32,000 nucleotides of DNA from Trichodesmium erythraeum IMS101 (GCF_000014265.1 NC_008312.1:2490001-2522000), one strand, 5' to 3'; positions 21,454 to 32,000 are shown, counted from the first letter of the stretch. Notes: generated from the letters alone by a model not told the origin. Program-made: numbers and translations.

Positions 21454-21659
21454 AAACTGGAAATTTTTACTGACAATTATCAGAAGGCTAGCACTATAAC
21501 CTTTGATGAATGTGTTTGGATGAATGGTGAAGATATAATTGTGATTCAATGTCACAATTATCTCACGGGGTGACAAGCTAGTTGAAAGCTATATATAGAA
21601 AGGAATTTGTGTTCGGGAACTAAAGAATATTTCAACAAAAAGAAAACGCTTATTGGACT

Positions 21660-21710
21660 GGGTAGGGGGTGTAGTGCGAGCGCAGAGCGCTCGCACTACA
21701 CCCCCTACCC
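21660..21710. other. Perfect 24-bp GC-rich hairpin (3-nt loop) inside the IS, between IRL and the transposase start
   Basis: GGGTAGGGGGTGTAGTGCGAGCGC-aga-GCGCTCGCACTACACCCCCTACCC. It stands out against very AT-rich surroundings. Confidence 0.9.
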
Positions 21711-21802
21711 ATGGTTGATTATTTATTCATTAAAACATTAAAAAAAACTGTTAAAAATATGATAAAAAAGGGTTAATAATTACAAAAAAAAAAGAAGAAA
21801 AA

Positions 21803-22951
21803 GTGAATATATTAGGCTTTTATCAAGACCATATTAAGCAAAAGTTGAGTCCATCTCAAGTAGTAACATTACAAATATTATTATACTTAATTTCAGTACA
21901 TAAAACTGTACAAATATCAAAGCTAACCAATTATTTTCAGCTACCAATTAAATCAGAAAGTAAGCGAAAACTTATGCGAAAGATTTTTAACCCTAAAGGA
22001 ATTAAGTTTACCTATATTTTGGTTCCCTTTAGTCAAAATAATGGTAAAAAATCTCTTCAGCTTTACCTCAGAGTTAGTGTTGATTTTAGACCGCACTCAG
22101 TGGCAAAATATTAATATTTTAATGATAACTGTAGCTTGGAAAAAGACAGCTTTACCTATATATTGGAAGATTTTATCTCATAAAGGAGCTAGTAATTTAA
22201 CCGAACAAAAATCAGTAATTCGCCCTGTATTAAAATTATTGAAAGTACACAAAATAATTCTCACAGCACCCTAGAATTCCACAGTATTTTCCTGTGCCAT
22301 TGGTTGAAAGAATATAAAAAAAAAGACGTATATTTTGTCTTGAGACAAAAAAAATCAACTATGATAAAACGAGGGAGAAAATATTTTCAACTCTCAGAGT
22401 TAAAAGTAAATATCGGTGAATCCCAACTATTATTGAATCAAAAAATTACCAAAATTTTGAAGGTAGGAACATATAATTTACTTGTATATAAAAGACAGAA
22501 ATATCGTCAAAATTCTGTTTCAGAGAAATGGTATATTCTCTCCAATTTATCATAGTAATGTGGAAAAGTTAAAAAAATATATAGCCAGAGAATGGGCATA
22601 GAAGCCATGTTTAAGGATTATAAAACTGGTGGTTATAATCTAGAATCAGCAAAAGCCAACGAAACTAGACTTAATAATCTAATTTTATTAATAGCTATTT
22701 CATACACAGTTAGTTCATTTAAAGGACAAGAAATTAAAAACAAAGGAGTTCAAGAATATATATCAAGAACTAATGAAAGAGGTAGAAAAGAAAGAATAAA
22801 CAGTAGTTTTTGCTTAGGTTTATCTAGTATTTATTGGGCAATAAATGATGATTTAATGTGGAAATTAGTAGAAAATTTAATGAGCCTTAATCCTCATAAA
22901 TTACTATATTATCGCAGGGGAATAAAAGCGATGAATAAAGTGGTTAATTAG
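21803..22951 (+). pseudogene. IS4-family DDE transposase broken into at least four ORF fragments
   Basis: ORFs 21803..22114, 22041..22274, 22304..22555 and 22592..22951 lie in different frames. A (D)REFHS-like text sits at about 22275. An exact Y-(2)-R-(3)-E-(6)-K signature (YSQRMGIEAMFKDYK) sits at about 22580..22625. Confidence 0.8.
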
Positions 22952-23872
22952 ACTGTAATTTTTGATTAAAAATTAATTAATAAAGTTAAGTTTTTTCATG
23001 ATATTATTCTACCGCACAACTTGAATTATTCCTCAGCCCCTGAAGGCAAATCCCTTTATATATATAGCTTTCAACTGGCTTGTCACCCCGTGAGCACAAT
23101 TATATACAAATATTTGTAGTTTATCTAGTAGAGATTTTGGATAAACTCTAATTATCATTTTGGATATGCTCAAAACACTCAGTTATACTTTACTCCTGGC
23201 AAAATAATCTACAAAGGCTTTGTTCTTTAATAACAAAAGATAATAATTTTCCTGTAGCTAAAAAGCTAAACTAAACTCTCAAGCAAGACTTGTTTCAAAA
23301 CAAACATTTACTGATATTATTACCATGTCAGTTCAAAAAAAAAGCAATAAAAGTTTGCGATCATACTCTTTAGCAACTATATCCGATAATGGTTCCTTAC
23401 ATTTAACTGTGGGAGAATACGACAAACTCCTTGTAGGTGGTATACAATTAAGTAATGGCAAAAATTTCGACCCCGGAAACAGCAAAGATAAAGCTTTTAA
23501 TATTGGGTCTTTAAGTGATAAGTTTCAGTTAGATGAATCTGTAGGTAAGAGCGATCGCCAAGACTTTTACAAATTTACGGTAGAAGAACAGAGGAAAGTA
23601 GAGATTAAACTGATGGGTTTGACGGCTAATGCAGATTTATATTTACTACCCGAAAAAGGTAAAGTCATTGACAAGTCTAAAAATGGCGGTAAGAAGAATG
23701 AAAAAATCACTGCGACTCTTGAGCCTGATACTACTTATTATTTGCAGGTGCAACCGAGAAATAAGACGATCAAAATGCTGATTATCATCTCAGTTTGGAT
23801 ATTAGAGAAGCAACAGATAATCCTATAGTTCACAGTGATTTTCTTGAGAGAGTCGTGGAACTTACCAACCAA

Positions 23873-25007
23873 TAGACATCTCCAAAATAGAAAATAAGGT
23901 AAAATTATCAAAACCATTTATGTATGAAGTCTCCCAAATGAATCCAACTTTAGAATATATTTATAATCATCCAAAAGAAACAAAAAGAATTATTGGCATT
24001 ACTTATGAACAGCTAATAAAATTAATAGCAAAGGCCCAAATAATAGAATCAGAGAAAAAGGAGGCAATCGCCAAAACAGAAAAAAGACTAATTAAAGCAG
24101 GTGGAGTCAGAAAAAAGAATTTAACAAAGGAAGAAGAAATAATGTTAACGTTATTTTATTTACATCAAATACCAACTTTTCAAACATTAGGAATTAACTT
24201 TGGTATAAGTGAATCAAGTGCTAATAATATTTTTCATTACTGGATAGATATTTTCAGAGAATTACTGCCAGCAAGTTTATTAGAAAAAGTAAAAAAAAAA
24301 GAAAATGAATTGGAATGGGTAAAGGAGATAGTAACAGAATTAGAATTAATTGTAGATAGTACAGAACAAAGTAGAGAAAGACCAAGTGAATATAAAGACC
24401 AAGAAAAATATCAAATATGAAAAAAGAAAAATCATACTTTTAAAAATCAAATAATAACGACACCAAAAGGAACAGAAATAGTAGATGTAATAGTAGGAGA
24501 AAAAGGTCCAGTAAGTGATGTAAAAATATTAAGAAAACAACTGGATAAATTTGATAAAAAACAAAAATTTTAAGGAGATAAAGCTGATGAAGGAGTAGAA
24601 AGAACTACTACACCAAAAAAGAAACCAAGAAAAAAAGAAATGTCGCTAGAAATCAAAGAAGAAAATCAAGAAAAAGCCAGAAAGAGAATATTTGTAGAAC
24701 ATATAATAAGATTAATTAAAATATTTAGAATTGCTAGAGAAAGATTCAGATTAAAATATAATAATTATCAAAAAGTAATCTTAACAATATGTGGTTTAGT
24801 GCGACTAAAAATTGGCTCTTTTATATTAGTATAAACCATCAAAAGCTGAGACAAAAATAATAAATTAAAGTACAATAAATATTTGAATTAGTAACACGAA
24901 GTATCTCTGATGCCCATAAAACTGTACAAATTAACTATCTTCATAAGTAGCGATAGCACCACTAAAGATAGTTAGGATAAGCGTTTGAGTATTTTTGGAG
25001 ATGTCTA
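23873..25007 (+). mobile_element. Small IS (about 1.13 kb) with Harbinger/PIF-type (DDE_Tnp_4, IS5-like) transposase, inserted in the PPC-CAP gene
   Basis: Terminal inverted repeats TAGACATCTCCAAAATA (23873..) and TATTTTTGGAGATGTCTA (..25007). The exact ends and TSD are ambiguous (AAT or TA). Confidence 0.7.
23920..24834 (+). pseudogene. DDE_Tnp_4-type transposase with two in-frame nonsense codons
   Basis: A single frame reads ...LIVDSTEQSRERPSEYKDQEKYQI*KKKNHTFKNQIITTPKGTEIVDVIVGEKGPVSDVKIL...KF*GDKADEG...RKRIFVEHIIRLIKIFRIARERFR.... The family pattern is D-x-T-E ... YSGKKK-HT-K-Q ... GD-GY-G ... R-x-VEH. TGA at 24418..24420 and TAA near 24571. Confidence 0.75.
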
Positions 25008-25728
25008 ATAGAATATGGCAGTGCAAGACTTTTATGAACATATTGGATTAGATGGTTCTTTAGGAGGCGATCATATTGAAGCTACAGGATATGACTTTTC
25101 AGCATGGGCAGAAAATATTGCGGTAGGATATCAGACACCAGAAGTAGTGGTAAAACTTGGATGAATAGTAAAGAACATCGTGCTAATATTCTCAATCCCA
25201 ATTTGCAATAAATTGGTGTTAGTTACTATTTCTTGGAGGAAGATACTGGTAGCGTTAACTTCAATTGTTATTGGATACAGGTTTTTGGTATGCCTGATAT
25301 GTAAATATGAGAGAGGTTTGACTTAGTGGGACTTACACAATTTTTAAGCCCAAATATAGTCTAAACTCTCCTTGGGAAGGGCAAATATGTCCCTGTTTTC
25401 AGTTAACTAATCAAAGAAACCCAAAGACATAGCTGTGCGAGCTTTTAAGGCTTCAGTAAATGTGTTCAAAGTTTCTTCGATCACTGTCTTTGTTAGCCTC
25501 CAGTTAATTTATGCAAATGATAAAAGTATAAGCACAAAACATCAAGATCAAATGGAGTAATGAACGCCATTTATCTCTCACTTGAAATTCTTTTAGCTTT
25601 AACCATTATGAGCGCTTTTATGTCAAAAACTTTGACCCAACAACTCTATTGAATAAGTCTTTACTATCCATTTTTTCTGATTGCTTAGAGTGCTTAAACT
25701 CTTATCTCAAAATAGCTTTGATTGCTTC

Positions 25729-26394
25729 TCAGTCCCTGATTTCTGAACCAGTAGAAGAATTATAAGTATAAATCGTAACTTCTTGAGAACGAACTAGCTT
25801 TCCATTAAACATATACCCTGGTCTTACAGTTTCACAGATTAGATCGTCTTTGTCTGGATCCTTCACAACCCGCGTAGCCATAATTTGCTGTTGCTCATAG
25901 TTATAGCTGCCAGTATCTTCTAGAGATTGCACCCCCTCTTTTTCCAAAACTTGCCCCAACTCTTGATATAAGGACTCTAGTAATTCAGGGGTATTTGCAT
26001 TGTCTCCTGTTTTGGCGAGTAGAACTAAATCCCGTAATTTGATTAGCTCTTTCGCCGTTTCGGATAACTCTGGCTCCCGAGCAACTTCTGTTACTGGAGG
26101 AATGATTGTAGATTTTTCTAAAGCGATCTGTTCCGCAATTGCGTTATTCGCATTTGCTTCTACAGTCTCAGTTTGTGCGATCAGAATATCACCGCGATCG
26201 AGCAACCGCTCCAAAAGTAAGTTAGCTGATTTTAACAGGGAAACAGTGTTGGTGTTTCCAAAATTGTTATTTTCTGGCTGCAAGCCGTTCAACTTTCGTG
26301 CATTTGCTTCAGTTTTTATAGCCTCTTCTTTTGCTTGTTGCTGTTGCGCCATCCAGGGGCAGAAAATATTAAATATGGAAAAATCGTTAAGCAT
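25729..26394 (-). CDS. GrpE-like (nucleotide-exchange-factor fold) protein, last gene of the dynamin operon
   Basis: The C-terminal third (LEKEGVQSLEDTGSYNYEQQQIMATRVVKDPDKDDLICETVRPGYMFNGKLVRSQEVTIY) follows the GrpE pattern GV..i...G..fdp..h.a......d....v.....GY..nG+.lR.a.V.V. A coiled-coil-like N-terminal half is present. Start at ATG 26394, preceded by AGGAGG and overlapping the upstream stop (ATGCTTAA). Confidence 0.6.
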   Translation of the reverse strand: MLNDFSIFNIFCPWMAQQQQAKEEAIKTEANARKLNGLQPENNNFGNTNTVSLLKSANLLLERLLDRGDILIAQTETVEANANNAIAEQIALEKSTIIPPVTEVAREPELSETAKELIKLRDLVLLAKTGDNANTPELLESLYQELGQVLEKEGVQSLEDTGSYNYEQQQIMATRVVKDPDKDDLICETVRPGYMFNGKLVRSQEVTIYTYNSSTGSEIRD

Positions 26395-27961
26395 AGGAGT
26401 CCTCCTGTTGTGCAATTTGATAGAGTATTTGTTCGTAGGAATGGGCTATTACAGTAGCTGCCTCAATGGTCTGGCTGTCAGCACTCATATAGTCATTGGC
26501 TCTCTGTCTCCAAGACTGTACTCGTTGTTGGGCGACATGAGTCATCTCGGCATCAGTGGCATTTTCACCAAGCTCAAGTCGTGCTTTTAGGGAGGTTCCG
26601 TTTTCACCGGTCACTGCTTGAAGTTGTCTAACCTCATCCTTGTTAAAACCGAGCTCGCCCTGGTAATAACTGTGTAATACTGCCAACTGCTGAAAGCCTT
26701 GTTCCTCAACCTCCAGCCTTTCAAACTCTCCTGCTATGTCGGCGACCATCTGAAAATCTGCACCCTCTAAACGCTGTTTTTCCATGAAACAAGCTGCTTT
26801 GATTTGTTGCAATGCAACGCTCAACTTAATCAGGAAAGCGCGGTTGCCAAAGTGGGATTTAATCAAGTCTAGTAGTTCTGATGCGCCACTTCGCTGGAAT
26901 AGTTTCCGAGCTAGCAATTCCTTTTCTCTAGTTCCACTGCGGATAAGATTGGCAGCCAACCAGATTCCGTATTGTCCAAGTCGGTCTAGTACCAATTTTC
27001 TCTTATCTGCGGGCGGTATCTCTGGCTCTTTTGGATACTCGCGCTCCCTAAGTCGCGTGGCATTTTTGACCAGACTCCGAAGTCTACTTTCCGGCAGTGC
27101 AGCTAGCTGCATTAGGGTATCAAACTCTTCTGGAGTTAGGGTTTGCGCTCCAAAAGCCAGAAGACCGCATACCGGCAGTGTGGTATAAAGCGCGCCGCGC
27201 AAATGTTCGGACTGCAATCGCTCTGTGATTTCACGACCTTTGAGAATCGGTTCTTCACCGTCCGACCAGTAATCATCTACTTTAGTCAGTACTCCAATTG
27301 CATTAATTGGCGTTGCTTGTCCGAATGCAGCACCTTGAAACTCAGCCATTGTGTTTTGGCTAGATTCAGAGAAGCTTTTAGCGAATAGGTATATTACGGC
27401 ATCAGCATTAGAAGCTTCTTCCTGGGTTGCTTGCGTTAGTTCCTGACCGTGCAATTGCAGGAAGTTTTTGGTGTTTTCTGAATCAGCTTCGTAAGCTGAC
27501 GCCAAACCCGGGGTATCTATTAGGTTAAATTTCTTCAGGATAGGGTTGGGATAAGATAACTCAATGTACTTAATGCTCAGTAAGTAGTTGAAGGAATCGC
27601 TGTTAGCTTCAGCCCGTAGGGTTAGATCTTCCAGTTCTTCAAACGATTTCGGTTCTGGCGGAGAGCCATTTTTGTAATGGACTAGCAGAGATTTGGATTC
27701 ACCATATTTCAGCCAGTTGACGTTGAATGTAGCTTCTACCGTGCCGGTAGCTACTATTTTTTCCCCCAGAAGAGCATTCATCATTGTAGATTTCCCAGCT
27801 TTTATCATGCCAACTATCGCTACTCGCATTGGTAAATCTAACTGCTGGTAACACTGATCAATCTTTCGGTATAGGTTCTGCAACTTGGGGCGATTCATGG
27901 TGCAACCAAGAGCAAACTGAAATACCTCTTCAGCGCGATCGCGTAATGCCCGATTATCCAT
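26387..27961 (-). CDS. Dynamin-like GTPase 2 (BDLP/LeoA-like), soluble, 524 aa
   Basis: G1 VAIVGMIKAGKSTMMNALLG, G3 IDTPGLAS, G4 VLTKVDD, followed by a long helical stalk. Start chosen at ATG 27961, which overlaps the stop of the upstream gene (ATGGATAA). The ORF-track extension to 28105 lies inside the upstream gene. Confidence 0.82.
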   Translation of the reverse strand: MDNRALRDRAEEVFQFALGCTMNRPKLQNLYRKIDQCYQQLDLPMRVAIVGMIKAGKSTMMNALLGEKIVATGTVEATFNVNWLKYGESKSLLVHYKNGSPPEPKSFEELEDLTLRAEANSDSFNYLLSIKYIELSYPNPILKKFNLIDTPGLASAYEADSENTKNFLQLHGQELTQATQEEASNADAVIYLFAKSFSESSQNTMAEFQGAAFGQATPINAIGVLTKVDDYWSDGEEPILKGREITERLQSEHLRGALYTTLPVCGLLAFGAQTLTPEEFDTLMQLAALPESRLRSLVKNATRLREREYPKEPEIPPADKRKLVLDRLGQYGIWLAANLIRSGTREKELLARKLFQRSGASELLDLIKSHFGNRAFLIKLSVALQQIKAACFMEKQRLEGADFQMVADIAGEFERLEVEEQGFQQLAVLHSYYQGELGFNKDEVRQLQAVTGENGTSLKARLELGENATDAEMTHVAQQRVQSWRQRANDYMSADSQTIEAATVIAHSYEQILYQIAQQEDSYA

Positions 27962-30014
27962 CTGCCCAGTCCTCTCCATAATCAGCATTGCTCGGTTCGT
28001 CGATTTGACTTGCTTCCAACACCTGCGAATCCCCATCCGATTTTGGTTGAAAATTTGCCATAGTTTCGGTCTGAACGACAGTTTCCTTTTGGGAAATTGT
28101 GGCATTGGCTAGATTTTCGACGCTGTTGTAGAGTTTGTTGAGTTGCTGCAAAGGAATTGCTAGCTGCTTGAGTTTTTCTTGCTTCTCTCGCTCGGTGAGC
28201 TTGCGAGTTTCCTGAATAGAACGTAACGTGCGATCGCAATTTTGCTTTAACTGTCCGATCTTTTCGCTCAAATCATCTGTCATCGCCCGCTTTAATTGTA
28301 TAACAGTTTTATTCAAAGACTGTTGACAAAGCTCTTGACTTTCTCTGATAAACTGCTGGATGTGCGGGTTGATTTCTCTTTGAGCGGCAGCTGTATCCTG
28401 TTTCTTAACTTGGGATACTCCTTGTACTACTCCAGATGTAAGTCCCGCTATTCCACCAATTGCAGCACCAATTGACGAACCAATAACAGCTCCGGGCCCG
28501 GCTCCCACACCACCAAACAGAAAGCCGATACCTGCACCAACTGCTCCTCCTACCGCACTAGCAAGAGTTCCCCCGGCCGTAGCATTAAACATCCCACTGC
28601 GCGTTACGCTCAGGGTTTTTTCCCACCATCCTGACTTCTTAATCTCTATGCTATCTGTTGATAGTTCAGTTTTTTCCCAGTCTAAAGAGTCAAGATTAGA
28701 GATACCAAGCTCCAATCCACTTGATGTCTCAATTTGGTAATGCAAGCTGGCTGCTTTGCTGCTAACTTGCTTTCCTATGTCAGACATCAGGGTATCAATA
28801 TCCCGCTCGACCAACTTAGCAATCTCCGCTGGTTTCTCTAACAATTTGCTATCTTTCATATAGTCATTTGCCCACCCCTGAACTTTGGTAAAGCCACTGC
28901 GCAATTGAGCGGACAATTCCATGCTGATATCTTCGATACCGCGACTTAACTGCTTTTGCCAGTTGGTGTTGTCATTTTGGAGATCTTGAAAGCGTTGCTT
29001 TTCATTCTGGAACTGGCTTTCCAGCTTATCAATCTCTTCTTTGCTTTGTTGCTGGCAAGTTGACAATTCAGCCTGGATCGGCATTTTCATATCCCTTAAA
29101 GCTGGTCCCAGTTCTCCCAGAGCACGGATCAGCAAAATGTAGCCCTTCTCTTGGGTGAGTAGTTTCCCCAATTCTGACTCTAATGCTATGAAGTTGCTAT
29201 CCTCTAAGTCTTCCTCATCTTCATGCTTTAAGTAGTCAAGGTAGTTGTGGCTAGATACAGGGACGATCGGAATTTCATTGCCAGGACGCTGTAGCACTTG
29301 GGCTAGTTTTTCCCTGTTATTCGCCACGATAGTTTGGTAGTCTGCTTTAGAATCTATTTTGGTAACAACGAAGATAACGTTGGAAATAACATTAGGACAG
29401 CGATCGACAATAAATTTCAGAAATTTGAGTTCGTCTTCTGACAGAGGGTTTTTGACATCGCTAACAAAAAGGATGGCATCGGCTTCGGGGATGAAACTGT
29501 AAGTAATTCCCGTATGTTGGGTATTGAGTCCCCCCACGCCAGGCGTATCCACCAATACTAAACCATCCTTCAGTTTTTGGTTAGGCGATTCTATAACCAG
29601 CATCCGAGCTTGACGCTTGTTTCCTTTATTGAATTTCTCGTTAGCATAATTGCCTATTTCCTGGCGTTGAATTTTCTCTTTCTTTTCTTTACCTGGTTTT
29701 CCCAGGATAACCGTAATTTGTTCCCTTTCTCCGTAAGCGATCGTGGATACAATACCGGTGGCAATATCAGCATCTACCGGGAATAAGTCGTCATTGGCTT
29801 CCTTGAGAAGTGCATTAATCAAGCTAGATTTTCCTTCCTTGAACTCACCGCAGACTACAACCAGCAACTTACCCTCAAGTAGACGTTTTTGAGCTTCGCC
29901 CAGACGCCGCTCTATATCTCTGTATTTATAGGTTTTGGCAAAGGATATTGCTGATTGCAACAGCTTTAGGGTCTGCTGCTTCTGTTCCTGATATCGTGCT
30001 TGGTAGGTAGGCAT
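27954..30014 (-). CDS. Dynamin-like GTPase 1 (BDLP/LeoBC-like) with glycine-zipper hydrophobic membrane segment, 686 aa
   Basis: G1 VVVCGEFKEGKSSLINALL, G3 VDTPGVGG, G4 VVTKIDS, helical stalk. GGTLASAVGGAVGAGIGFLFGGVGAGPGAVIGSSIGAAIGGIAGLTSGVV is followed by a coiled coil and an acidic tail. RBS GAGGAAAG precedes ATG 30014. Confidence 0.85.
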   Translation of the reverse strand: MPTYQARYQEQKQQTLKLLQSAISFAKTYKYRDIERRLGEAQKRLLEGKLLVVVCGEFKEGKSSLINALLKEANDDLFPVDADIATGIVSTIAYGEREQITVILGKPGKEKKEKIQRQEIGNYANEKFNKGNKRQARMLVIESPNQKLKDGLVLVDTPGVGGLNTQHTGITYSFIPEADAILFVSDVKNPLSEDELKFLKFIVDRCPNVISNVIFVVTKIDSKADYQTIVANNREKLAQVLQRPGNEIPIVPVSSHNYLDYLKHEDEEDLEDSNFIALESELGKLLTQEKGYILLIRALGELGPALRDMKMPIQAELSTCQQQSKEEIDKLESQFQNEKQRFQDLQNDNTNWQKQLSRGIEDISMELSAQLRSGFTKVQGWANDYMKDSKLLEKPAEIAKLVERDIDTLMSDIGKQVSSKAASLHYQIETSSGLELGISNLDSLDWEKTELSTDSIEIKKSGWWEKTLSVTRSGMFNATAGGTLASAVGGAVGAGIGFLFGGVGAGPGAVIGSSIGAAIGGIAGLTSGVVQGVSQVKKQDTAAAQREINPHIQQFIRESQELCQQSLNKTVIQLKRAMTDDLSEKIGQLKQNCDRTLRSIQETRKLTEREKQEKLKQLAIPLQQLNKLYNSVENLANATISQKETVVQTETMANFQPKSDGDSQVLEASQIDEPSNADYGEDWADG

Positions 30015-30034
30015 ACTTTCCTCGCAAAAATTAA

Positions 30035-30571
30035 TTAGTTTTTGGTTAAGAAGTGGTCAAAAAACTTTGAGCCTAGAACGCGATAATACGGCTCCAGGGA
30101 AGGTTCCATCAAAGTCCGCAAAAGCTGGCTAAATCCTTCTTTCCATTGTGGAGAAAAAGATTTCCCTTGAGCCAGTTTCTCAAGCATTTCCTCATACATA
30201 GCTAACAAGCGCCTGCGCTTTTCTTGATATTCCCCCACTGTCATCTGGGCTACTTCTGCATGAGGAAAAGTACCAACCTCCTTTTCCCAATTTGCTTCCG
30301 GCCAAGGATTGCTATAGCGGAAGTTGAGGTATTCGACTATCATTTGGTTAGACCAATCCCAGGTTATTTTGGCAAACGGTGGAAATAAAGCCGTCTGAAC
30401 TTTGCTCTGGGTATGAGCACCAAAAAAAGGTAAGGTGACATAGACTTTTCCACCTTTGCGTTGGGGAATTGGCCATCCGCTTTGCGCCTCCATTGGTACG
30501 AGCTGGCGAAAAAGTGGAGTTTTGCGGATGTCTTCCATCAAATTTTCAATTTTCTGCTTTGTTTGTTCCAT
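30035..30571 (-). CDS. Hypothetical protein (178 aa), no recognisable motif; operon member
   Basis: Clean ORF with ATG at 30571. It lies 18 nt after the upstream gene and 20 nt before the dynamin gene, with the same strand and composition. Trp/Pro-rich (WPIPQ, WDWSNQ, NPWPEANWEKE). Confidence 0.65.
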   Translation of the reverse strand: MEQTKQKIENLMEDIRKTPLFRQLVPMEAQSGWPIPQRKGGKVYVTLPFFGAHTQSKVQTALFPPFAKITWDWSNQMIVEYLNFRYSNPWPEANWEKEVGTFPHAEVAQMTVGEYQEKRRRLLAMYEEMLEKLAQGKSFSPQWKEGFSQLLRTLMEPSLEPYYRVLGSKFFDHFLTKN

Positions 30572-30589
30572 GATTTTCGTGCTTAGGTT

Positions 30590-31852
30590 TTAGACTCCTC
30601 CCAATATGCCAAATAAATAATAACCAACGCTAATAATATCGGTACCGCCGACGGCTTTTATCGTTCCACCCATATTATGAACCTTATGACAACTATCAAC
30701 CCATCCAACCTGAACTCCTTTGGCATCGTACACATTTCCATCGGCACCTAACTTTCCAACGTAATATCCTTGAGTGTTATAAAATTCACGGGCTTTGACA
30801 CTTCCCACCGAGCTACCATTTATATAGCAACTACCATCAGGATAGACATTAAAATAGTCGTTACAGCCCAAGATTAAATCATGGGAATCGTGTTGTTGCA
30901 GGTCTCCAGAAAAGATTAAATCTTGTTGGTGAGTATTCTGGTTGTCATGTACGTTAGTAGCAACTAGATAGTTACCGCCCGCGGCCCAAGCCTTCTCAAA
31001 TTGCTCCAAGGGAACCATCATCCCGCCTCCATCAGGAGAGCCGGGATCGTTGAGAACAACTTTTGGATGCAGGGGGTCTGACTCTGGGTATACAATCCCA
31101 GTAACTTCGACTGCATGGTCGGCTTGCTGGCCGGGAATACCTGAGTACTCATTTAAGGTTTGATTTAAGTTTGCCTCTTTCTCTGACATCCAGATTTCTT
31201 CAGAGTTTACTCCTACAATTACCTTTTCTCCACGAGCTAATTTGTCACTCAATTCTAGAGTAGTTCCACCAAAATGACGCTCTACGGGGATGCCGTGTTC
31301 TTCTAAGAGATGGCCAACATGGTATGCTGGTGTTCCGCTACCTGGGTGATAACATCCGTCAGCTATAGCTTCTCTACAGAGATCGTTTTCTGAGAAGTGC
31401 TTTCCCGTGAGGTTTTCCAGAACGAATTGTTGGGAGACAATGGCACAATCATCGGCGTAGCGTTGTTGATGCCAGCATTCCATGTCGTGACCAGGATCTC
31501 CAATCACTAAACCATCGGGGTGTTCTGGGTCAAAGTGTTGGTGAGCCGAATATTCTGACTGGTCTTCGGTGTCTCCTAATAAAGGGGAATAATCGCCGCT
31601 ATCTTCTGCGGGTTGAAAGTGCCAGTCGTCTAGCTGACTGCTAGAATCGTCTAAGAAACTGTAATAATCAGTTTCGTAGGCATCGAAAGTATGCAAATTC
31701 GAGTCATGCTCGTCGTTACCCAAATCATGCTCGGTGTCGGGGGTATCGGAGTCGTAATTATGACCGAGGTCATCAAGGTTCGAGTCAAGAACTTCAATGG
31801 CCGCCTCTTCTAAGCTGTCCGTAACTAGCGAATTGTTATCAAATATGTTCAA
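30590..31852 (-). CDS. Papain-fold cysteine peptidase, C39-like domain, with acidic/His-rich N-terminal region and hydrophobic C-terminal tail (420 aa)
   Basis: Q-x5-C context HQQRYADDCAIVSQQFVLENLTG (Cys codon 31445..31447). His context QADHAVEVTGIV. Asp context VVLNDPGSP. The order Gln/Cys/His/Asp matches C39-type peptidases. TTG start at 31852 with AAGGAGG 8 nt upstream. C-terminus ...IISVGYYLFGILGGV. Confidence 0.65.
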   Translation of the reverse strand: MNIFDNNSLVTDSLEEAAIEVLDSNLDDLGHNYDSDTPDTEHDLGNDEHDSNLHTFDAYETDYYSFLDDSSSQLDDWHFQPAEDSGDYSPLLGDTEDQSEYSAHQHFDPEHPDGLVIGDPGHDMECWHQQRYADDCAIVSQQFVLENLTGKHFSENDLCREAIADGCYHPGSGTPAYHVGHLLEEHGIPVERHFGGTTLELSDKLARGEKVIVGVNSEEIWMSEKEANLNQTLNEYSGIPGQQADHAVEVTGIVYPESDPLHPKVVLNDPGSPDGGGMMVPLEQFEKAWAAGGNYLVATNVHDNQNTHQQDLIFSGDLQQHDSHDLILGCNDYFNVYPDGSCYINGSSVGSVKAREFYNTQGYYVGKLGADGNVYDAKGVQVGWVDSCHKVHNMGGTIKAVGGTDIISVGYYLFGILGGV

Positions 31853-31886
31853 TTAACCATCCTCCTTGCTATGTAAATAGACGATC

Positions 31887-32000
31887 TTATGACAACAGTT
31901 TTTTGAAAAAGTTAGTCACTCCCGATAATGCTTTTGCTGCTGTTAAGGATTGACGAGCATCTTCGTGGCTAGGATCGAGGCGGATTGCTTCTTCATATTC
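31887..32000 (-). CDS. 3' end of a TPR-repeat protein gene (partial, continues beyond the window)
   Basis: The minus-strand frame reads EYEEAIRLDPSHEDARQSLTAAKALSGVTNFFKKLLS*. The ..A..yeeAirldP.h..A pattern is a TPR repeat end. The stop at 31887..31889 lies 34 nt upstream of the peptidase gene start. Confidence 0.6.
   Translation of the reverse strand, partial: EYEEAIRLDPSHEDARQSLTAAKALSGVTNFFKKLLS

Follow-up and report, generated by a model that had tools for sequence, protein, structure and literature searches.

A divergent GrpE paralogue encoded in a dynamin-pair operon of Trichodesmium erythraeum, and its candidate Hsp70-type partner

What is a GrpE-fold protein doing in an operon of dynamin-like GTPases, and which Hsp70 would it serve? 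The question is raised by a minus-strand gene at positions 25729–26394 of a 32,000 nucleotide (nt) stretch of Trichodesmium erythraeum IMS101 DNA (NC_008312.1:2490001-2522000), referred to here as the window. A preliminary description, made from the sequence alone, had proposed that this gene specifies a divergent GrpE-like domain, that it is translationally coupled to the gene for a dynamin-like GTPase, and that it has no Hsp70 gene nearby. The best reading of the locus is that the GrpE-like protein is a specialised GrpE paralogue serving Hsp70s that are without a substrate-binding domain and the catalytic lysine, in a conserved and uncharacterised dynamin operon whose first gene extends past the edge of the window.

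The GrpE-like gene is an intact open reading frame (ORF) of 221 aa from an ATG at 26394. A mechanical ORF list runs it further, to a TTG at 26415, and the closest homologues share the start residue given by the ATG. This ATG overlaps the TAA of the preceding gene, encoding the dynamin-like protein (DLP) DLP2, in the sequence ATGCTTAA (26394–26387), and a Shine-Dalgarno-like AGGAGGA, read from the sequence, lies inside the end of DLP2 on the same strand (26400–26406), 5 nt before the start codon. The junction between the two dynamin-like genes, DLP1 and DLP2, overlaps in like manner (ATGGATAA, 27961–27954). Since the ORF, the overlap, the Shine-Dalgarno-like motif and the starts of the homologues agree, the coordinates and the translational coupling given in the preliminary description are correct, as is the C-terminal sequence that it quoted, which occurs verbatim in the translation. 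A simple scan for a minus-strand terminator 3' of the gene found none.

The C-terminal ~105 residues of the protein are a genuine, divergent GrpE domain (residues 106–211; 25762–26079, minus strand). The Pfam model PF01025 (GrpE) matches residues 106–208 with E = 1.6e-7 and 31.6 bits, above its gathering score of 25.8, over model positions 56–163 of 165, and homologues from other phyla score 36–38 bits against the same model. A profile of 17 members of the family matches Geobacillus GrpE (4ANI) with E = 8.4e-5. The AlphaFold model, built on the alignment of these 17 members, has a mean predicted local distance difference test (pLDDT) score of 71, rising to ~82–90 across residues 106–211, which form a helix pair (half of a four-helix bundle) followed by a C-terminal beta-domain. 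A Foldseek comparison of this model with the PDB, as had been suggested at the outset, placed GrpE or GrpEL1 at all of the top 11 chains (probability 1.00), the best being 1DKG_B (E = 5.6e-6, root-mean-square deviation 2.9 Å over 102 columns, 24% identity), and the first non-GrpE match appeared only at E about 1.8. The relationship required the profile search and Foldseek to be seen, as a single-sequence phmmer search of the PDB gave no match. A fold first recognised by eye is thus borne out by the Pfam score, the profile match to 4ANI and the structural ranking. The N-terminal half had been called coiled-coil-like, but it is modelled as two shorter helices (residues 13–35 and 50–66) followed by a disordered linker (70–105); the long N-terminal stalk helix of GrpE is not present in the model, and the Pfam match begins only at model position 56. 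Several homologues have an N-terminal hydrophobic stretch that resembles a membrane anchor.

The protein is a specialised GrpE paralogue and not the housekeeping GrpE, a distinction that had been anticipated and is upheld by the NCBIfam GrpE equivalog models, none of which scores it above 24 bits (cut-offs 184–266). Its neighbours are dynamin-like genes, and not the adjoining dnaK and dnaJ of a housekeeping grpE. A family signature, T-[VI]-R-P-G-Y...R-x-Q-E-V, is found in the GrpE domain. A word-indexed profile search returned 77 GrpE-like members, several of them named 'nucleotide exchange factor GrpE' by NCBI. When 1.84 billion representatives were searched exhaustively with a profile, 75 clusters passed E ≤ 1e-30, 294 passed E ≤ 1e-10 and 1985 passed E ≤ 1e-3, counts that carry no genomic context. 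The RPGY-like...RxQEV-like signature was kept in all 12 hits sampled down this list to the weakest shown (82 bits). A pattern-based scan of species genomes gave 6 loci only, and understates the family, given the 75–294 clusters of the exhaustive search. Judged from sequence, the GrpE-like proteins form a distinct paralogous family that is fairly rare.

The apparent lack of an Hsp70 partner has a simple cause. A tblastn search for an Hsp70 ATPase domain inside the window gave no match, and to that extent the statement that no Hsp70 is in view holds. The last 114 nt of the window (31887–32000), however, are the 3' end of a minus-strand gene, its last 37 codons and stop, and their translation, which ends in EYEEAIRLDPSHEDARQSLTAAKALSGVTNFFKKLLS before the stop, is the same as the C-terminus of a 746-aa product of metagenome contig L005, which is 99.2% identical to window positions 25010–32000. 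The L005 product and its intact relatives on contigs L010 (936 aa) and L008 (801 aa) match Pfam HSP70 over positions about 2–372 of 599, and in these proteins the ATPase domain is followed by many TPR repeats and not by a substrate-binding domain. The full Hsp70-TPR fusion gene was found in contigs that are from 99% to 67% related. The missing Hsp70 is therefore an artefact of the window edge, which truncates the first gene of the operon, and the premise that the GrpE-like protein has no Hsp70 partner nearby, which had led to the two proposals that it recruits a distant Hsp70 or has taken on a new role as a regulator of the GTPases, has to be given up. The preliminary description had allowed for a dnaK downstream of the gene; the putative partner lies upstream instead, at the head of the operon and just past the right edge of the window.

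The operon is a compact minus-strand run of six genes in the right third of the window, in the order Hsp70-TPR, p420, p178, DLP1, DLP2 and GrpE-like. Its conservation was followed in 15 independent loci with sufficient flanking sequence, by means of gene tables and a tblastn synteny table, with the window lineage (L005–L007) counted as one. The cyanobacterial loci were from Scytonema, Calothrix, [Phormidium], Coleofasciculus, a Gloeotrichia chromosome (CP197496) and several metagenome contigs, and the others were from Dictyobacter formicarum (Chloroflexota), a Blastocatellia metagenome-assembled genome (MAG; Acidobacteria; 58% GC), a 67%-GC assembly and a 31%-GC MAG. All 15 clusters contain at least one gene with an Hsp70 ATPase domain, often two or three, on the same strand and either at the cluster head or directly after the GrpE-like gene, so that a gene for an Hsp70-like candidate third partner, which the preliminary description had proposed to look for, is present at each of these loci. 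The C-terminal domains of the cluster Hsp70s vary, and include TPR, WD40, beta-helix, WG-beta, YbjN, FGE-sulfatase-like and GTPase domains. The GrpE-like gene lies directly 3' of DLP2 in 14 of the 15 loci, the exception being Dictyobacter, where an Hsp70-WD40 gene stands between the two.

The ratio of nonsynonymous to synonymous substitution rates (dN/dS) in the GrpE domain is 0.17 and 0.12 against relatives at 77% and 67% protein identity, similar to the dynamins (0.12–0.16), and in the N-terminal part of the protein it is 0.59 and 0.78 against the same two relatives. Because dN/dS is low in the one part and high in the other, the gene can be taken as real and the GrpE domain, which is under purifying selection, as the constrained part of the protein. 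A chance ORF is ruled out by the ratios of 0.12–0.17 in the domain together with the conservation of the gene across phyla.

These results favour the GrpE-like protein as a dedicated nucleotide-exchange factor of the operon's own Hsp70-type ATPase, a reading that we would give a probability of roughly 0.6. It is favoured because the beta-domain of GrpE acts as a wedge that opens the nucleotide cleft of Hsp70 and is specific to that cleft (PMC4753570), and because the GrpE-like gene co-occurs invariably with Hsp70 genes. Binding to the operon Hsp70, the exchange activity and the cellular role are all matters that we infer from sequence. The ATPase domains of cluster Hsp70s (from L001, L002, L008, L010 and L018–L022) were aligned with that of Geobacillus DnaK, whose crystal structure with GrpE is their closest relative in the PDB. 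They keep the phosphate-1, phosphate-2 and adenosine motifs and an E171-type glutamate, and should therefore bind nucleotide. With its beta-domain and paired helices the GrpE-like protein would bind the nucleotide cleft of the operon Hsp70 and speed nucleotide release, as GrpE does on DnaK, and this release would set the rate at which the Hsp70 switches. With TPR, WD40, beta-helix or other domains standing in place of the peptide-binding domain, the Hsp70 might sense a signal via its repeat domain, or might assemble or disassemble the dynamin complex. Coupling to DLP2 would put the exchange activity beside the membrane-bound dynamin pair, and the N-terminal hydrophobic anchors of some homologues would likewise put the GrpE-like protein at the membrane. 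A physical link of Hsp70 activity to the dynamin assembly via the GrpE-like protein is possible, because its gene is so consistently placed directly 3' of DLP2 (14 of 15 loci).

Several observations weigh against a dedicated exchange factor. None of the 15 alignable cluster Hsp70s has a lysine at the position of K70, the catalytic lysine of DnaK; they have E, N, Y or D instead, which may make ATP turnover, and with it any requirement for an exchange factor, unusual. The subdomain IIB loop of these Hsp70s is 4–8 residues shorter than that of DnaK, and their IB loop, which in DnaK is required for GrpE binding, is at least 3 residues longer. On the side of GrpE, the residues compared are those given in the literature on 1DKG as contacting DnaK. 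R186 of E. coli GrpE corresponds to R202, which is invariant, and the GY..NG motif is retained, but the equivalent of R183 is the variable K199, the FDPxxH motif reads FNYExQQ, the position of G122 is not Gly in the GrpE-like family, and the stalk, which in GrpE contacts the IB loop of DnaK, is missing. Both partners appear to have diverged at the classical interface, which is compatible with co-evolution. The position of the GrpE-like gene, moreover, follows DLP2 and not the Hsp70 genes, and a J-domain gene was not seen in any related locus. Finally, the Hsp70-TPR gene of L005 (L005:1881–4508) has an in-frame TAA at codon 123 (PATH-stop-DYKK), where the L010 relative has Q, and gene callers split it into products of 122 aa and 746 aa. 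The same TAA is common to L005, L006 and L007, three independent assemblies that are 99% identical to the window, and in all three the interrupted gene is the sole cluster Hsp70.

Among the other explanations, the one that survives best makes the GrpE-like protein an adaptor or regulator of DLP2, or of DLP1/DLP2, that modulates their assembly or GTPase cycle, acting either independently of Hsp70 or mainly as a tether that docks Hsp70 onto the dynamins. It would account for a gene that stays directly 3' of DLP2 in 14 of 15 loci while the Hsp70 genes shift from place to place, that shares bases with the DLP2 stop both in the window and in its nearest relatives, and that specifies family-specific N-terminal helices and, in some members, hydrophobic anchors with no GrpE counterpart; the divergence of the canonical DnaK-contact motifs also fits. 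We nevertheless consider it unlikely, as constraint falls on the GrpE domain and not on the N-terminal part, the beta-domain wedge is specific to the Hsp70 nucleotide cleft, and Hsp70 genes accompany the cluster in all 15 loci, one of which (Dictyobacter) has its Hsp70-WD40 gene between DLP2 and the GrpE-like gene. Dynamins also release nucleotide fast, and do not need exchange factors to do so.

A second explanation, of low probability, is that the chaperone arm is decaying in the window lineage and that the GrpE-like gene is an intact remnant without function. This reading draws on the early TAA that three independent assemblies share in the Hsp70-TPR gene, on two insertion sequence (IS)-like elements close downstream in the window and on the pattern of substitutions. 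The GrpE-like gene of the window differs from that of L005 (10001–10666) by 13 nonsynonymous and 3 synonymous changes; for the four other operon genes pooled the counts are 12 and 18 (Fisher p = 0.012). The GrpE-like protein differs at 12 of its 221 residues, 5 of them by a change to lysine. A mosaic of this kind points to selection that is relaxed or diversifying, or else to recombination. On the other hand, the GrpE-like ORF is intact in all copies, 8 of the 12 amino acid changes fall within the linker (70–108), which is weakly constrained in all comparisons, and DLP1 (identical over 686 aa), DLP2 and p178 (one residue different) are almost unchanged. Codon 123 of the window genome's own Hsp70-TPR gene falls outside the window.

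A dedicated partner for the cluster Hsp70 also compares favourably with the first option of the preliminary description, in which the GrpE-like protein brings the housekeeping DnaK to the dynamin assembly. The presence of a GrpE fold, and an ORF that has stayed intact in the L005 lineage although the cluster Hsp70 is interrupted, would agree with such recruitment, but the stalk, the R183 equivalent and the FDPxxH motif are missing or changed, dedicated divergent Hsp70 genes are always in the cluster, and the GrpE equivalog scores are far under their cut-offs, which together make it very doubtful. That the protein is the genome's canonical GrpE, as the label given to several homologues by the NCBI pipeline would have it, is rejected as wholly improbable on the equivalog scores, the lack of adjoining dnaK or dnaJ, and the small and patchy family (~300 clusters at 50% identity, E ≤ 1e-10).

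Two insertions are found downstream of the operon. The one at 23873–25007 is IS-like, with perfect 15-nt terminal inverted repeats (TAGACATCTCCAAAA) and split transposase fragments (HTH_Tnp_4 and DDE_Tnp_4). It takes the place of part of a CAP-domain gene that L005 carries 3' of the operon. The other, at 21562–23094, is absent from L005, which is 98–99% identical, and has 74-nt terminal inverted repeats (85% complementary) and four short ORFs that have no Pfam match, with no transposase domain detected; it may be an insertion sequence. Inside it, at 21659–21711, is a perfect 25-nt inverted repeat with a 3-nt loop (TGGGTAGGGGGTGTAGTGCGAGCGC / GCGCTCGCACTACACCCCCTACCCA).

The remaining genes of the operon, all on the minus strand, are as follows. 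The p420 gene (30590–31852), syntenic across the related loci, encodes a protein with an acidic N-terminus, a conserved core in which Gln, Cys, His and Asn/Asp follow a papain/C39-like pattern, and, at the C-terminus, a beta-flower-like region that is a weak match (Bflower_2, E = 4.7e-4, under the model cut-off). The N-terminus of homologues has EF-hand-like repeats that are rich in Asp (DxDGDG), and Q130, C136, H246, N268 and D269 are invariant among 10 of them. Peptidase_C39_2 matches the family weakly, in two of the 10 homologues, and the family profile found no relative in the PDB, so that it is the invariant pattern that suggests a papain/C39-like peptidase. The p178 gene (30035–30571) encodes a conserved small protein and is always immediately upstream of DLP1. 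It has no Pfam, NCBIfam or PADLOC match and 49 homologues, one of them named from Streptomyces, the contig position of which could not be found. Its AlphaFold model, of very high confidence (pLDDT 92), has nothing under E = 0.1 in a Foldseek search of the PDB, and possibly represents a new fold.

DLP1 (27954–30014), 686 aa long, is a bacterial dynamin-like GTPase in which residues about 486–522 form a glycine-zipper membrane segment. It matches Dynamin_N (E = 2.4e-25) and DUF6861 (E = 8.6e-10), and its closest relatives in the PDB are IniA (5e-41) and Nostoc BDLP (4e-17). DLP2 (26387–27961), the second dynamin-like GTPase, is most likely 524 aa long, reading from the ATG at 27961 that overlaps the DLP1 stop; the mechanical ORF reaches 28105, and relatives are called at 523–538 aa with the same 8-nt overlap. 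It matches Dynamin_N (E = 7.6e-19), and its closest PDB relative is Campylobacter DLP2 (5OWV_C, 2e-12). With two adjoining Dynamin_N genes and a membrane segment in DLP1, this is a paired dynamin-like operon.

Other paired dynamins (Campylobacter DLP1/DLP2, LeoA/LeoBC, IniA/IniC and Nostoc BDLP) likewise have two differing dynamin-like genes per operon with overlapping stop and start codons, and one partner with a membrane-inserting segment, and the proteins described here have significant matches to IniA, BDLP, Campylobacter DLP2 and the LeoA/LeoBC models. We know of no GrpE-like gene or Hsp70 fusion genes in any of those operons, and the papers searched describe none. Against the LeoA and LeoBC models of the 'Dynamins' anti-phage system of PADLOC, DLP1 scores 123 and 66 bits, and DLP2 only 39 and 31 bits over short stretches. 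With GrpE itself (1DKG, 4ANI) the protein has in common the C-terminal beta-domain, the two helices of the four-helix bundle and a genomic tie to Hsp70-type ATPases. It differs in that two short helices, a disordered linker and sometimes a hydrophobic anchor replace the long stalk, in that it is tied genomically to a dynamin pair instead of dnaK/dnaJ, and in that its presumed Hsp70 partners, unlike DnaK, are without a substrate-binding domain and the catalytic lysine. The chloroplast HSP70B-CDJ2-CGE1 and cpHsc70 systems reportedly remodel VIPP1 oligomers, a case, in the cyanobacterial/plastid lineage, of an Hsp70 and a GrpE-type factor working on a membrane-shaping protein, but there the Hsp70, J-protein and GrpE are canonical, the target is of ESCRT-III type and the genes are unclustered.

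Jilly et al. (2018, PMC5827413) described, among the dynamin-like proteins of cyanobacteria, a 'chaperone clade' whose genes have DnaK-domain genes as neighbours, and proposed a tie between membrane remodelling and Hsp70 activity. A DnaK-domain gene lies in the operon described here too, a resemblance in gene content to that clade. The text and one supplementary file of that study, which concerns cyanobacteria only, do not mention GrpE, and do not describe p420, p178 or the variable Hsp70 C-terminal domains. The DO-GTPase/GAP1-N2 conflict systems (Kaur et al., 2020, PMC7159879) combine two paralogous GTPases with HSP70 and GrpE, the HSP70 sometimes without a peptide-binding domain, and may have TPR-bearing partners. 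Like the chaperone clade, they are a precedent for the exchange-factor reading. Multicellular bacteria are enriched for them, and most of those found are from actinobacteria and firmicutes; that paper never mentions dynamin. Their GTPases are of another family than the dynamins, and membership of the present operon in these systems is rejected on that ground; no GAP1 family appeared in the Pfam results for p178, p420, their homologues or the other cluster proteins. Literature searches on GrpE and dynamin in bacteria, defence and cyanobacteria found no direct description, but their coverage was incomplete and an earlier description is possible. A link between dynamins and DnaK-domain proteins in cyanobacteria has been on record since 2018, and no description of the GrpE-like member or of the full module was found.

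The role of the module would lie in membrane repair or remodelling, or in anti-phage or conflict defence, and we regard a housekeeping membrane-repair role and a conflict/defence role as equally open. Traits that resemble those of defence systems are the variable, sensor-like domains of the Hsp70s, the several Hsp70 paralogues per locus, the patchy distribution across phyla and the LeoA-like dynamins; the carriers found are mostly filamentous bacteria. It is a tentative idea, possible but short of probable, that the six genes form an undescribed surveillance or defence machine with lysine-less Hsp70 sensors, a GrpE-like gate and a dynamin-pair output. In such a machine the Hsp70 ATPase domains, with their variable repeat or ligand-binding domains, would act in a STAND-like manner, as sensors rather than chaperones; the GrpE-like factor, sometimes anchored in the membrane, would gate the Hsp70 nucleotide state; and the dynamin pair would reshape or seal the membrane, aided by the C39-like peptidase and p178. 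At the Scytonema locus (L001), a vWA gene, a PP2C phosphatase, a TerY_C-like gene and an FHA gene follow the cluster (L001:17160–20670) and a Ser/Thr kinase precedes it (about L001:3183–4226), a neighbourhood typical of signalling or conflict systems.

For annotation, a 'nucleotide exchange factor GrpE' encoded beside dynamin genes is a member of a separate paralogous family and not a housekeeping co-chaperone. Both p178 and p420 are candidate partners of interest to those who study bacterial dynamins or new defence systems. Pairs of dynamins are common among bacteria, with regulation and cellular roles that are poorly understood, and there has been essentially no study of Hsp70s without a substrate-binding domain. 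The module described here brings the two together in a testable hypothesis, that the nucleotide cycling of an Hsp70-type switch may be coupled to membrane remodelling, with parallels in the action of Hsp70 and GrpE on VIPP1 and of Hsc70 on clathrin coats.

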